Numbered from the stretch's first letter, positions 14,949 to 18,752 are shown. The stretch: 64,000 nucleotides of DNA from Chlamydiota bacterium (GCA_011064725.1 JAAKFQ010000002.1:2662-66661); one strand, 5' to 3'. Notes: generated by a model from the letters alone, not told the origin. Numbers and translations: made by a program.

Positions 14949-15362
14949 ATGATGGAAATTCAGGCAACCTATCTACATGACATGCGCATCGAATGTATCC
15001 GCCTGGATACAAAGGAGCGTATTTATACAGATGGGCCTCAAAGTATTCAAGGGCTCGATGAATATTTTTCACCAACAGATCTGTGTGTGCTCAGTTTAGC
15101 AACCTGTGTGCTAACAATGATGGGATTGAAAGCCAAAAAGCTTGGAGCCGATTTCAAAAAGACGCTTGTGAAAATGCAAAAAGAGATGACAAAAGATTTT
15201 AAGCGCATCGGCTTTATTGAACTGGAAATTTTTTGTCCTAATGAATTTTCAGAAGAAGAACAAAAAGCTCTGGAAGATGCAGCCTATACGTGCCCTGTGC
15301 ACCATAGCTTGCATCCAGAAATTCGTATCAATATAGAATTTTATTGGGGCGTACATGGCTGA
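14949..15362 (+). CDS. OsmC/Ohr family peroxiredoxin-like protein
   Basis: 137 aa with the two OsmC-type Cys contexts (SPTDLCVLSLATCV and YTCPVHH). Overlaps the next gene by 8 nt. Confidence 0.7.
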   Translation: MMEIQATYLHDMRIECIRLDTKERIYTDGPQSIQGLDEYFSPTDLCVLSLATCVLTMMGLKAKKLGADFKKTLVKMQKEMTKDFKRIGFIELEIFCPNEFSEEEQKALEDAAYTCPVHHSLHPEIRINIEFYWGVHG

Positions 15363-16065
15363 TATTATTATTCAAGCAAGAGTGGGCTCAGAGCGTTTGA
15401 AAAATAAGCTTTTATTAAAAATCAAAGATCAGACGCTGTTAGACATTTTAATCAACCGATTAAAAAGGTGTAAAAAAGTAGAGCGTCTTATTCTTGCCAT
15501 CCCTGATACAAAAGAAAATGATGTCTTAGAAAAGGCATGTAAAAAGCATGGCATCGATTGCTTTAGAGAAGATGAAAAGAATGTCTTAAAACGGTTTTAT
15601 TTGGCTGCCCAGCATTTTAGTAGTGAAATTATTGTACGCATCACATCAGACTGTCCTTTGATGGATCCAGAACTTGTCGATGTGATGATCGAAACTTTTG
15701 AAAAAAGCACGTGCGATTATGTCACAACAAATCAAAAACGCTGTTTGCCAAGAGGATTTGATGTAGAGGTTTTTTCATTTAAAGCACTTGAAAAAGCATT
15801 TTTTATGACACAAGACCCTGTGCATTTAGAACACGTCACGCTTTTTTTTAAAACATCTGAGGAATTTTCAACAAGAGTGGTTCAACATCCTTTTGTCAAT
15901 GCACATTTCAGGTTGACGCTTGATACAAAAGAAGATTTTGCGCTCTTAAAAATCCTTTTAGAAGAGTTAGATCCTGCATTTTCTATGCTTGATGTGTTTG
16001 ATTTTTTAGAAAAAAATCCCCATATTGCTATACTTAATAAACACATCAAACAAAAGCTGGTATAG
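15355..16065 (+). CDS. cytidylyltransferase (CTP_transf_3; SpsF / acylneuraminate cytidylyltransferase-like)
   Basis: N-terminal IIIQARVGSERLKNK (AR-x-GS-x-RL-x-K motif), ITSDCPLMDP and RGFDVEVF. Confidence 0.8.
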   Translation: MADIIIQARVGSERLKNKLLLKIKDQTLLDILINRLKRCKKVERLILAIPDTKENDVLEKACKKHGIDCFREDEKNVLKRFYLAAQHFSSEIIVRITSDCPLMDPELVDVMIETFEKSTCDYVTTNQKRCLPRGFDVEVFSFKALEKAFFMTQDPVHLEHVTLFFKTSEEFSTRVVQHPFVNAHFRLTLDTKEDFALLKILLEELDPAFSMLDVFDFLEKNPHIAILNKHIKQKLV

Positions 16066-17570
16066 TGATCGATTTTGAGTGCGTCTTTTCAACGAGAGAA
16101 CATGCAAAAATTCTCTACAATTGGAAGCAACATCCTTCTATAAGACTTGTTTCGAAAGATTCTTCTAAAAAGACATTTGATGCGTTTTTTGCAGAAGATT
16201 TTTTGCTCAAATTTGTCACAAGTCTTTATAATTTTTCTTATTTTGTTGCATTAAAGGGAAAAAAAATAGGGTGTGTGCGCATGCATCCTGTGGATTCGAA
16301 GATTCTAGAAGTCTCTTTGTTTTTAGACCCTGAATTTCAAAATAAAGGATGGGGGATAAAAGCTTTAAAAAAGGCCATTGAGTTTGCAAAAGGTCTTGGT
16401 TTTCGGACTTTAAGAGTAGAAATCAAGCAAGAAAACACAAGATCTAAAAAATTCTTTCAAAAATTGGGATTTAAATACCAAAAGACTTTTCAGGGTTTAG
16501 AGATGTTTCATTTGGATCTATTTGGGCAATTTAAACGCACCTACATCATTGCAGAGGCGGGCAGTAATTGGATGGTGGAGGGAAAAGATCATAAAGAAAT
16601 AGCAAAACAGATGATTTTTGCTGCAAAAGACGCTGGATGTGATGCGATCAAGTTTCAAACTTTTAGAAAAGACAAGCTTTATGCCAAAGGAGTATCCAAT
16701 GCCAAGTATTTGAAAAAACGAGGCATTAATGAAACGATGGAAACGCTGTTTGAAAAATTTGAAATGCCTTTAGGGATGGTTGAATGGCTCTATTTAGAAA
16801 CGCAAAAAGTGGGACTTGATTTTTTATCTTCTGTATTTTCTAGACCAGATTTTATTGCTGTCGATCCTTTTGTCAAGATGCATAAAATTGCCTCTTATGA
16901 ACTGTGTCACCTCGAGCTTTTAGAATGTGTAGCACAAACAAAAAAAACGTGTCTTTTATCCACAGGGGCGGCATCGATGCAAGATATTTTGTGGGCTAAA
17001 TCTAGGCTCAGCGATAATGAAGTGATTTTGATGCAGTGCACAGCTCACTACCCAACGCCAATAGAAGATTTAAACTTAAATACCCTGCTTCAAATGAAAA
17101 GTACATTTAAAACACCCGTGGGTCTTTCTGATCATTCAATGGATCTTTTAGCTCCTTCAATTGCAGTGAGCCTTGGAGCTAGTGTGATAGAAAAACATTT
17201 TACCCTGTCTAGGCAATATGCAGGGCCAGATCATTTTTTTGCTCTAGAACCCGATGAACTTAAGACCATGTGTTTAAATATTCGAAAAGCAGAAAAAATG
17301 GGTAAAAATTTCTCAAAAAAAGTCGAAAATGTAGAAAAAGAGCTCTTTTACTTTGCAAAAAGGCGCTTGCATACAACAAGATATGTCAAGAAGGGAGAAG
17401 CATTTGTCTACAAAAAAAACTTTGATATATTAAGATCTGGTGACAAAAAAGCAGGACTTGAGCCAAAATACCTACAACTTGTAAATGGTAAAATAGCCCA
17501 GTGTGATCTCGATGAGGGAGAAGGCATTGAGCAAAAGGATGTGAATGCAGCTGCAAGCACTTTTTTTTGA
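16065..17570 (+). CDS. GNAT N-acetyltransferase fused to a NeuB-family nonulosonic acid synthase with SAF domain
   Basis: The N-terminal ~160 aa form a GNAT fold (FQNKGWGIKALKKAIEFAK). Next come NeuB motifs YIIAEAGSNW...DAGCDAIKFQTF and VGLSDHS, then a C-terminal SAF-like domain. The GTG start overlaps the upstream stop (TAGTG). Confidence 0.8.
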   Translation: MIDFECVFSTREHAKILYNWKQHPSIRLVSKDSSKKTFDAFFAEDFLLKFVTSLYNFSYFVALKGKKIGCVRMHPVDSKILEVSLFLDPEFQNKGWGIKALKKAIEFAKGLGFRTLRVEIKQENTRSKKFFQKLGFKYQKTFQGLEMFHLDLFGQFKRTYIIAEAGSNWMVEGKDHKEIAKQMIFAAKDAGCDAIKFQTFRKDKLYAKGVSNAKYLKKRGINETMETLFEKFEMPLGMVEWLYLETQKVGLDFLSSVFSRPDFIAVDPFVKMHKIASYELCHLELLECVAQTKKTCLLSTGAASMQDILWAKSRLSDNEVILMQCTAHYPTPIEDLNLNTLLQMKSTFKTPVGLSDHSMDLLAPSIAVSLGASVIEKHFTLSRQYAGPDHFFALEPDELKTMCLNIRKAEKMGKNFSKKVENVEKELFYFAKRRLHTTRYVKKGEAFVYKKNFDILRSGDKKAGLEPKYLQLVNGKIAQCDLDEGEGIEQKDVNAAASTFF

Positions 17571-18207
17571 TTTAGATGGGACCATTGCAAATAGCATGCC
17601 CTATCTGTATCAAAGCTATCAAAAGGTCTTAAAACCTTATGAGATTTCAGTAGAAAAAAAAGATTTTTTTCATCTTTTGACGCTGTCATTTGAAGACATG
17701 CTTGCATATTTTTCAAAAAAGCATGTTAACATCGATCCAAAAAAGATTGTTTTAGACTATTTTGATGAGGTTCATTTGGGATATCTGGATGCAGTAGATG
17801 TTTATGAAGGCGCCAAAGAGTTTATTGAAAAAGCTACCAAAAATCACAAGCTTTTTCTTGTAACGAATGCAGATGATCAATTGGCAAGCAGCTTTTTAAA
17901 AAAACATGGAATGTTAGAGGCTTTTGATGGGGTCATTACGTCAAGTGAACCCAGATTTGCGAAACCTCATCCCTATCTTTACCACAAAGCCCTGCAGCAG
18001 TCTAAATGTAATTCTGATGAAGTCTGTGCGATTGAAGATTCAAAGGCGGGCATACTAGCTGCGCATTTAGCAAACATTCCGTTGATTTTCATTGATCATC
18101 ATCAGATGGATATAGAAAAAAAAATAAAACAGATATTTTTTCAAAATTTTAAAAATTGGCAAGAGGCTCTACAATGGCTACACTTACAGACCAAGAAATT
18201 AAGATAA
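17545..18207 (+). CDS. HAD-IA family phosphatase (phosphoglycolate phosphatase / beta-phosphoglucomutase-like)
   Basis: Motif I FFDLDGTIANS at residues 7-17, motif II LVTNA and motif IV IEDSKAG. Overlaps the NeuB-fusion gene by 26 nt. Confidence 0.8.
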   Translation: MQLQALFFDLDGTIANSMPYLYQSYQKVLKPYEISVEKKDFFHLLTLSFEDMLAYFSKKHVNIDPKKIVLDYFDEVHLGYLDAVDVYEGAKEFIEKATKNHKLFLVTNADDQLASSFLKKHGMLEAFDGVITSSEPRFAKPHPYLYHKALQQSKCNSDEVCAIEDSKAGILAAHLANIPLIFIDHHQMDIEKKIKQIFFQNFKNWQEALQWLHLQTKKLR

Positions 18208-18752
18208 TTCCTATTTTTTCGGATTTTAAAATTGAATCGACCAATTCACCTAAGAAAAACGGGCAATTTGTTATCTCCGAATATTCAGAAAAAAGTATGC
18301 ACGGTTCATTTCTTCCTTATGAAGAAGCTAAGCACTATAAAAGGGCCGCTGTCAGTGGTATTGTTATTGCAAAAGATGGAATTTTAATTGCAAGGAGATC
18401 TGAAACAGTGGATCAATATCCCGATTTTTTTGAATGCGCACCGTCAGGGGGATTGTGCCAAGAGGATTTTGAAGCGCAGCTTTATCAAGAGTTAGAAGAA
18501 GAAGTGAGGTTTGGAATCAAGGATATCGAGCGCTCTTTTTTGCTTTTTTTAATTGAAGATGTAAAAGCAAATACAGTCGATATTTGTTCTTTAATTAAAA
18601 TGCAGGAATTTTTTAAGCCGATTGTGAACAAGGAATATGTAGATGCGCAGTGGATCTATTTGGACGAACTGTCATCCTATTCTTATCAACATCGCCAAGA
18701 ATTTGTTCCCACATCGCTTGTTTTGATTGAAAAAGCAAAAGAAATGCTCTAA
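18174..18752 (+). CDS. Nudix-like hydrolase
   Basis: Degenerate Nudix box SGGLCQEDFEAQLYQELEEEVRF preceded by GIVIAKDGILIARR. I chose ATG 18174 (AAGAGG lies 7 nt upstream) over the TTG at 18156. Confidence 0.55.
   Translation: MATLTDQEIKIIPIFSDFKIESTNSPKKNGQFVISEYSEKSMHGSFLPYEEAKHYKRAAVSGIVIAKDGILIARRSETVDQYPDFFECAPSGGLCQEDFEAQLYQELEEEVRFGIKDIERSFLLFLIEDVKANTVDICSLIKMQEFFKPIVNKEYVDAQWIYLDELSSYSYQHRQEFVPTSLVLIEKAKEML

Follow-up and report, generated by a model that had tools for sequence, protein, structure and literature searches.

Introduction

Nonulosonic acids shape how hosts, phages and immune systems see bacteria. The present analysis deals with a five-gene operon at positions 14949-18752 (+ strand) of a 64,000-nt stretch of DNA from a Chlamydiota bacterium (GCA_011064725.1, JAAKFQ010000002.1:2662-66661), called hereafter the window. 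The operon encodes an OsmC-like protein, a cytidylyltransferase, a fusion of a GNAT N-acetyltransferase with a NeuB-family synthase (noted GNAT::NeuB), a HAD-IA hydrolase and a divergent Nudix-fold protein. We consider it moderately probable that this operon is the late half of a pathway leading to a 5,7-diacylamido nonulosonic acid (legionaminic/pseudaminic class), in which the Nudix-fold protein and the HAD hydrolase take over the step for which the described systems have one nucleotidase (PseG/SpsG or NeuC/LegG).

The closest described system is the sps pathway of Bacillus subtilis (SpsM, SpsC, SpsD, SpsG, SpsE, SpsF; Dubois et al. 2020, PMC7439481), in which genetics links SpsD (GNAT), SpsE and SpsF (cytidylyltransferase) with cytidine monophosphate (CMP)-legionaminic acid (PMC7439481). 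The operon resembles it by the adjacency of GNAT, NeuB-family synthase and SpsF-type cytidylyltransferase genes. It differs from it by the fusion of GNAT and synthase and by the lack of SpsG, in the place of which stand the Nudix and HAD genes; moreover SpsM, SpsC and SpsG are found neither in the locus nor in the window, and the host is a chlamydia instead of a spore-forming bacterium. The pseudaminic acid pathway of Campylobacter and Helicobacter (PseB, PseC, PseH, PseG, PseI, PseF) has the same late-step logic, in that the sugar is N-acetylated, loses its nucleotide without being 2-epimerised, is condensed with phosphoenolpyruvate and is then activated with CMP, and relatives of the HAD and Nudix proteins occur in clusters together with PseB, PseC and PseI above curated thresholds. 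On the contrary, the synthase, GNAT domain and cytidylyltransferase of the window do not reach the thresholds of PseI, PseH and PseF, there is no PseG, and neither PseB nor PseC was found locally.

Two other systems are relevant for the HAD and Nudix genes. In the 9-phosphate routes (NANS/NANP of animals; 2-keto-3-deoxynononic acid (KDN)-9-phosphate synthase and phosphatase of Bacteroides), a NeuB-family synthase, a HAD-superfamily phosphatase and a CMP-synthetase are likewise found together, whereas the HAD hydrolase of the operon is of the beta-phosphoglucomutase type, is tied to a Nudix protein and has relatives in 6-deoxy pathways. Human NUDT22, which converts uridine diphosphate (UDP)-glucose to uridine monophosphate and glucose-1-phosphate (PMC10101856), is the best structural match of the fifth protein; besides the Nudix fold, the two share an additional beta domain at the N-terminus and a Nudix box of atypical sequence. 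The sequence identity is however about 10%, and NUDT22 is a eukaryotic UDP-glucose/galactose hydrolase of pyrimidine salvage that has no link with nonulosonate synthesis.

Full-text searches of open-access papers gave none in which Chlamydiae are associated with nonulosonic, pseudaminic or legionaminic acids; neither Chlamydiae nor fusions are mentioned in a large-scale phylogeny of nonulosonate synthases, and a chlamydial pangenome paper mentions neither sialic acids nor lipopolysaccharide. Similarly, no open-access paper was found to connect Nudix enzymes with nonulosonate pathways, the sole co-mention among the papers listed being a review of nucleotide-sugar dehydratases.

Organization of the operon

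The domains, catalytic residues, gene order, fusions and co-occurrence reported below were computed from the window and from related loci (numbered with the prefix L) and proteins (prefix P). The source scaffold is 128 kb long, and about 75 kb of it were covered, i.e., the 64-kb window and 10 kb beyond it.

The five open reading frames (ORFs) are co-directional and intact, and each overlaps its neighbour, as judged from the ORF listing and the junction sequences. The gene for the OsmC-like protein (137 aa, 14949..15362) overlaps by 8 nt that of the SpsF-type cytidylyltransferase (236 aa, 15355..16065), which shares 1 nt (TAGTG) with the GNAT::NeuB gene (501 aa, GTG start, 16065..17570). The latter overlaps by 26 nt the gene for the HAD-IA hydrolase (beta-phosphoglucomutase family, 220 aa, 17545..18207). 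The fifth gene (18174..18752) encodes a Nudix-fold protein of 192 aa when started at ATG 18174, the start chosen by NCBI and by the homologues, or of 198 aa when started at TTG 18156; its overlap with the HAD gene is 34 nt or 52 nt, respectively. The junction sequences bear out the overlaps of 8, 1, 26 and 34 nt reported in a first-pass annotation of this DNA.

Within the fusion, the GNAT domain extends over aa 10-144 (about nt 16092-16496) and the NeuB synthase with its SAF domain over aa 159-493 (about nt 16539-17543). With the public gene call (429 aa, from 16281) the GNAT domain is truncated; the alignment of homologues from residue 2 favours the GTG at 16065 as the start. The base composition of the cluster is that of the remaining window.

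The synthase and the cytidylyltransferase

The NeuB domain is well defined (PF03102, E 4e-69, 233 bits for a cutoff of 22.1, aa 183-414) as is the GNAT domain (Acetyltransf_1, E 3e-14), while the SAF domain is a weak match (19.9 bits for a cutoff of 21, E 1e-3). The catalytic motifs AEAG, KFQ, SDHS, EKHFT and GPDH align with the sequences of 1xuu, 1vli and 8h2c. No variation was seen among 33 fusion proteins at residues E164, K196, Q198, H357, H378 and D389, so that the metal-binding histidines and the residues binding phosphoenolpyruvate and the sugar are kept; we take their counterparts in Neisseria meningitidis NeuB to be E25, K53/Q55, H215, H236 and D247. In this family the C-terminal SAF domain contributes an arginine to the active site; R457, nearly invariant among the fusions, aligns with the "RPG" of N. 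meningitidis NeuB. The catalytic residues are thus intact and the NeuB domain lies inside the nonulosonate synthase family, so that the initial assignment of the operon to a nonulosonic acid cluster holds.

The best relative of the NeuB domain in PDB is SpsE (1vli, E 1e-48), with PseI (3e-44) and then NeuB of N. meningitidis (1e-25) behind it. The NeuB domains of 133 sequences were placed in a neighbour-joining tree, with bootstrap on 61 of them (100 replicates); it must be noticed that the tree is distance-based and contains few biochemically characterised anchors. The GNAT-fused synthases and two unfused relatives form one clade (96% bootstrap), which joins the SpsE group of B. subtilis (92% bootstrap), SpsE being the nearest reference to the synthase of the window in 98 of the 100 replicates. 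The clade is apart from the PseI reference, from N. meningitidis NeuB and from the large Campylobacter-type clade of legionaminic clusters, the neighbourhoods of which are characterized by a 4,6-dehydratase, DegT, a PglD-like acetyltransferase, Epimerase_2 and a PtmE-like nucleotidyltransferase. As for the fusion itself, it had been described as unusual; in fact 70 of the 120 best database matches carry it (470-560 aa) and it is common in metagenomes. The role of PseH/SpsD is proposed for the GNAT domain by position and analogy. One non-chlamydial contig (L003, 9288-13356) has an SpsF-type cytidylyltransferase and a GNAT::NeuB gene adjoining a flagellin gene and fliR, which suggests that flagellin glycosylation is one use of this synthase clade.

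The cytidylyltransferase belongs to the CTP_transf_3 family (PF02348, E 7e-29) and its best PDB match is 6oew, a "cytidylyltransferase" (E 3e-37). It gives no match at E<0.01 to the PseF equivalog TIGR03584. Its gene is directly upstream of that of the synthase in every chlamydial locus examined, and a 584-aa protein from a 2-Mb contig (P0097) is a NeuB::cytidylyltransferase fusion, the NeuB part of which is 48% identical to that of the window. The existence of this fusion ties the cytidylyltransferase to the product of the synthase, and the protein is predicted from its sequence to be a CMP-nonulosonate synthetase of the SpsF type. The possibility that it would be KdsB was ruled out: a separate kdsB (CTP_transf_3, 256 aa) is paired with pyrG on the same scaffold, about 8-10 kb past window position 64000 (L120, 619-2942), and all KdsB models are far below cutoff for the operon protein. 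Since a separate kdsB is present, the operon enzyme is a second CTP_transf_3 paralogue and not the CMP-3-deoxy-manno-octulosonate (Kdo) synthetase. In the ORF clustering, SpsF-type cytidylyltransferases were joined with HisF-like proteins; that label underlies no conclusion given here.

The HAD hydrolase and the Nudix-fold protein

The fourth protein matches HAD_2 (E 7.5e-34, 118 bits), TIGR02009 (E 3e-19) and TIGR01509 (54 bits for a cutoff of 29.4), and its translation contains the motifs FFDLDGT (the DxDGT nucleophile) and EDSKAG. It is more likely a sugar-1-phosphate phosphatase, as predicted here, than a nonulosonate-9-phosphate phosphatase.

The fifth protein is below threshold for the Pfam NUDIX family (PF00293, E 0.006, 17 bits for a cutoff of 21.1); several of its relatives pass this threshold (e.g., P0189, 32 bits). 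A word-based search gave 3 homologues, and a profile including the chlamydial loci gave 28. The AlphaFold2 model calculated from the alignment of these 28 sequences has a mean confidence (pLDDT) of 94; a single-sequence model (pLDDT 31) was discarded. With this model, the first Foldseek match in PDB is human NUDT22 (E 2.6e-8, TMq 0.67-0.70), and further matches, with the same probability of 1.0, are isopentenyl pyrophosphate isomerase, YfcD and many Nudix hydrolases. As modelled, the fifth protein is therefore of Nudix fold. Its Nudix box is S-x5-E-x7-QELEEE-x-RF, to be compared with the canonical GX5EX7REUXEEXGU: the glutamates of REUXEE (E112, E115, E116) are invariant or nearly so in 61 members, while the Gly, the Arg and the loop length vary.

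When 1.84 billion representatives were searched with a profile, 724 clusters of this Nudix family came out at E<1e-30, most of them with proteins of about 235 aa; the copy of the window is about 35 residues shorter at its N-terminus than most members. In a recurrent class of 425-472 aa, a HAD_2 domain precedes the Nudix part in one polypeptide, and such HAD::Nudix fusions are present in the chlamydial loci L009 and L090 as well as in L113 and L119. On the basis of the modelled fold, the fifth protein is predicted to be a nucleoside diphosphate (NDP)-sugar pyrophosphatase belonging to a large unnamed family.

Relation of the Nudix family to PseG

A metagenome scan seeded with the Nudix-family motif alone gave 27 loci. 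Fifteen of these have NeuB or GNAT::NeuB next to HAD and Nudix, and contig ends cut off most of the remaining ones. The most complete picture is given by L119, on a 261-kb contig, in the order PseB-like, methyltransferase, PseC, the same type of cytidylyltransferase, PseI, formyltransferase and HAD::Nudix, where PseC (518 bits for a cutoff of 423.5) and PseI (473 bits for a cutoff of 340) are above their thresholds and PseG was not found in 16 kb. In the same manner, the Nudix gene is accompanied by PseB (493 bits for a cutoff of 408) and PseC (474 bits) in L095, by a PseB-like gene and PseC (508 bits) in L114, and, as HAD::Nudix, by PseI (462 bits) in L113.

PseG (TIGR03590) is absent from the locus of the window and from all Nudix-bearing loci examined, and the Nudix family was never found alongside PseG or NeuC/LegG in the loci examined. 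Among NeuB loci of at least 8 kb, PseG or Epimerase_2 is present in 0 of the 12 with the Nudix family and in 48 of the 61 without it (Fisher p 3e-7), a p value that overstates independence since 9 of the 12 loci come from chlamydiae and retrieval was not the same for the two sets. L091 has PseG directly upstream of a GNAT::NeuB fusion, in the very place of HAD and Nudix. PseG corresponds here to the protein family labelled U371 and is often fused to a PseH-like GNAT. A non-orthologous displacement is the simplest account and would explain at once the HAD::Nudix fusions, the linkage to NeuB, the Pse clusters lacking PseG only, and the mutual exclusivity. The pair appears to be a widespread, so far undescribed substitute for the PseG/NeuC/LegG step, the family comprising more than 700 sequence clusters.

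This predicted Nudix + HAD nucleotidase is the most interesting element of the operon, and it reaches well beyond this genome. If confirmed, it would account for pathways that look "incomplete" when genome surveys rate clusters on the canonical enzymes, and would provide an alternative route from NDP-sugar to free hexose for chemo-enzymatic synthesis.

Variants of these clusters were also observed. In L119 (1747-8402) and L101 (4122-8462) a formyltransferase replaces or supplements the GNAT in a Nudix-type cluster, and L101 has in addition a PIG-L deacetylase; these variants hint at N-formylated nonulosonates. A trio made of a glutamine amidotransferase, a HisF-like protein and a protein of about 400 aa without Pfam match recurs in nonulosonate clusters (L012, L016, L020, L024, L032, L039, L040, L052, L055, L066, L078, L083, L098 and L103). 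By analogy with WbpG/HisH/HisF, it is presumably an acetamidino-forming system.

Conservation of the module in Chlamydiae

The NCBI protein identical to the Nudix-fold protein is K940chlam8_00090 from a Chlamydiae bacterium. K940_chlam_8 is a family-level uncultured chlamydial lineage enriched in marine sediment (PMC8242063). The neighbouring genes of the window are typical chlamydial housekeeping genes and type III secretion chaperone genes. The chlamydial origin proposed from the sequence is correct, the source being a metagenome-assembled genome (MAG) of this lineage.

At least nine chlamydial lineages have the order cytidylyltransferase, GNAT::NeuB, HAD and/or Nudix, the last two being separate or fused, at 28-60% identity. 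L001 is fully syntenic with the window (41-63% identity), and the module is kept at 28-40% identity in L005, L006, L008, L009, L010, L090 and L092, where L008-L010 are Chlamydiia or Parachlamydiales MAGs of GTDB, L005 is GCA_964605535.1 and L092 is GCA_964487845.1. Such an order, kept in at least nine chlamydial lineages at low identity, indicates that the arrangement is under selection and not due to chance. The presence of the module in several chlamydial families suggests a surface sugar that has so far not been looked for in the phylum.

The OsmC gene does not follow this rule. The protein belongs to PF02566 (E 8e-14), and both family cysteines are seen by eye (ATC..., TCPV). It is the first gene in the window, in L006 and in L090, i.e., in 3 of about 10 chlamydial versions, and it is not at the operon in L001, L005, L008-L010 and L092. 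OsmC had been counted as an operon member; over the chlamydial versions it is a facultative and loosely attached one.

Downstream, the Nudix gene is followed after a gap of 16 nt by two co-directional housekeeping genes, holA (DNA polymerase III delta; TIGR01128, 84 bits for a cutoff of 80) and rsmI (TIGR00096, E 5e-23), which overlap by 4 nt (18768..20416, + strand). They are outside the sugar pathway; the transcription unit may nevertheless span seven genes, to 20416, with holA and rsmI co-transcribed. Depending on the lineage, the neighbours of the module are holA-rsmI or ssb-pepA-asd, and the linkage to holA-rsmI is also found in L001, L005, L009, L092 and L118. This points to an old and vertically inherited linkage and not to a recent insertion.

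Proposed pathway and alternative explanations

The substrates, the order of the steps, the stereochemistry of the product and the acceptor given below are deduced from the above assignments. The GNAT domain would N-acetylate a nucleotide-linked 4-amino-4,6-dideoxy-hexosamine (the role of PseH/SpsD). The Nudix-fold protein, like NUDT22, would then cut the pyrophosphate bond of the NDP-sugar, giving a nucleoside monophosphate and a sugar-1-phosphate, from which the HAD-IA hydrolase would strip the 1-phosphate to give the free hexose. The NeuB domain would join this hexose with phosphoenolpyruvate, and the SpsF-type cytidylyltransferase would give the CMP-activated sugar, to be transferred to a surface acceptor. 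The first two enzymes of the pathway (4,6-dehydratase and aminotransferase) would be encoded elsewhere in the genome or bypassed. The release of the hexose from its nucleotide carrier by the Nudix protein, already put forward in the first-pass annotation, is probably correct in view of the NUDT22-like fold, the linkage to NeuB and the lack of PseG/Epimerase_2 alongside.

Several results weigh against this pathway. The NeuB domain is below the equivalogs of N-acetylneuraminate synthase (TIGR03569, 249.5 bits for a cutoff of 399.65) and of PseI (TIGR03586, 229.1 bits for a cutoff of 340.25); the GNAT domain is below that of PseH (TIGR03585, 27.3 bits for a cutoff of 93.1), and only 8 of the 33 fusion proteins match the PseH model at all. 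The best PDB relative of the HAD hydrolase is a HAD-type inorganic pyrophosphatase of Bacteroides. The reservation made above on the Fisher test goes in the same direction. The window, the 10 kb beyond it and the flanks (about 20 kb) of all the chlamydial loci contain neither a 4,6-dehydratase nor an aminotransferase of the DegT type, which extends the absence from the window reported initially; because neither enzyme is nearby, the proposed substrate of the GNAT domain has no local source. Either the early genes are elsewhere in the genome, or the module is fed from another nucleotide sugar, possibly host-derived. Removal of the nucleotide by Nudix + HAD comes without the 2-epimerisation needed in the legionaminic and neuraminic routes and fits better a pseudaminic-type logic. 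Since the synthase is nearest to a legionaminic one, yet Nudix + HAD gives no 2-epimerisation, the evidence on the stereochemistry of the product is divided. Lastly, no transferase for the CMP-sugar was identified.

The lack of early enzymes leads to an explanation that is unlikely but has several points in its favour, i.e., a self-contained module devoid of PseB/PseC-type enzymes, in which Nudix + HAD would act on a common or host nucleotide sugar (UDP-N-acetylglucosamine (UDP-GlcNAc), UDP-N-acetylmannosamine (UDP-ManNAc)), the GNAT would acetylate a different position and the product would be another, possibly new, nonulosonic acid. All the chlamydial loci indeed have the four genes in a compact module, nine lineages lack dehydratase and aminotransferase over about 10 kb on each side, as does the source scaffold over about 75 kb, the GNAT is not PseH-like by threshold, and the NeuB domain is in neither the NeuB nor the PseI equivalog. 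However, non-chlamydial HAD + Nudix relatives occur in PseB/PseC clusters, there is no 2-epimerase to turn UDP-GlcNAc into a ManNAc-type substrate, and chlamydial biosynthetic genes are often scattered, the scaffold being covered over about 75 kb. It is rather improbable, as a wider consequence, that environmental chlamydiae without PseB/PseC-type enzymes build, CMP-activate and display on their surface a nonulosonic acid of new structure from a host or central nucleotide sugar; if true, the Nudix + HAD two-step nucleotidase would be a previously unrecognised entry into nonulosonate biosynthesis.

The remaining explanations assign another role to the HAD and Nudix proteins, or none. The HAD gene had been taken initially as the mark of a 9-phosphate route, in which the synthase would use a 6-phosphorylated hexosamine, the HAD hydrolase would act on the nonulosonate-9-phosphate and the Nudix protein would be separate. 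It is true that the HAD gene directly follows that of the synthase and is translationally coupled to it, and that the N-acylneuraminate-9-phosphatase of animals is also a capped HAD enzyme. Such a route is nevertheless quite improbable: HAD is repeatedly fused to Nudix and not to the synthase, its best matches are in the beta-phosphoglucomutase family and not in that of KdsC/KDN-9-phosphate phosphatase, and the locus has no kinase or N-acetylglucosamine-6-phosphate 2-epimerase. Moreover, the same pair is found alongside PseB/PseC/PseI, i.e., in 6-deoxy pathways, the intermediates of which have no 6-hydroxyl to phosphorylate and cannot bear a 6- or 9-phosphate. A house-cleaning or regulatory function, by which HAD and Nudix would degrade an excess of nucleotide-sugar intermediates or the pyrophosphate that the cytidylyltransferase sets free, is likewise given a low probability; many Nudix enzymes are house-cleaning hydrolases and the closest solved relative of HAD is the above-mentioned pyrophosphatase, but the strict absence of PseG/Epimerase_2 from the loci bearing the pair, as well as the Pse clusters complete but for PseG, would be left unexplained. 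It is hardly conceivable that the cluster is a decaying remnant without current function, as might be suggested by a locally incomplete pathway and the short N-terminus (by about 35 residues) of the Nudix copy, since the ORFs are intact and overlapping, the catalytic residues are conserved, the order is kept at 41-63% identity in L001 and down to 28% in other families, and the composition is like that of the surrounding genome.

Surroundings of the operon

A promoter-like site (TTGAAA-17-TACAGT, 14893..14921, + strand) is localized 28 nt upstream of the OsmC gene. It is a consensus match only, and promoter-like matches in the operon region are not in excess over the shuffled-sequence expectation. 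The divergent intergenic region between fabI and the operon (690 nt), which has no match in Rfam, contains a long inverted repeat (14336-14496) with arms of 78 nt, 78% complementary and 5 nt apart, and a perfect hairpin with a 20-bp core (14393-14439). The repeat might stem from a small mobile element or form a regulatory structure. Between this repeat and the operon, a very basic ORF of 60 aa (MTESKDSTDTSFWPTHRPRLRSAEGWDRKVKIRKRL..., 14567-14749) is a gene in the public record; no family could be assigned to it.

Two genes of glycosyltransferase family 9 (GT9, the heptosyltransferase family) were observed. One, at 27358-28455 (- strand), is separated from the downstream end of the operon by about 8.6 kb and has a syntenic counterpart in L001; another is in L119 (11225-12367), 3 kb from HAD::Nudix. 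A link of these GT9 genes with the sugar pathway is possible. The sole aminotransferase of the window is a class V enzyme (38368-39486). It was rejected as a sugar aminotransferase, being NifS-like (Aminotran_5 E 5e-63, DegT E 4e-4) and localized beside Fe-S genes.

Upstream of the operon, an ORF of 518 aa (10969-12525) contains the motifs "KADGNCGYYS" and, at the C-terminus, "THFEYI", which resemble the Cys and His boxes of ovarian tumour (OTU)-type cysteine proteases; this assignment is supported neither by Pfam (no match) nor by a PDB sequence search. Large ORFs without Pfam family (767, 742, 462, 540, 519 and 815 aa) are present at 43309-55311 and 61504-63951, and a tyrosine recombinase gene (55693-56550) adjoins them. 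These ORFs may encode chlamydial proteins specific to the lineage, or may belong to an integrated element.

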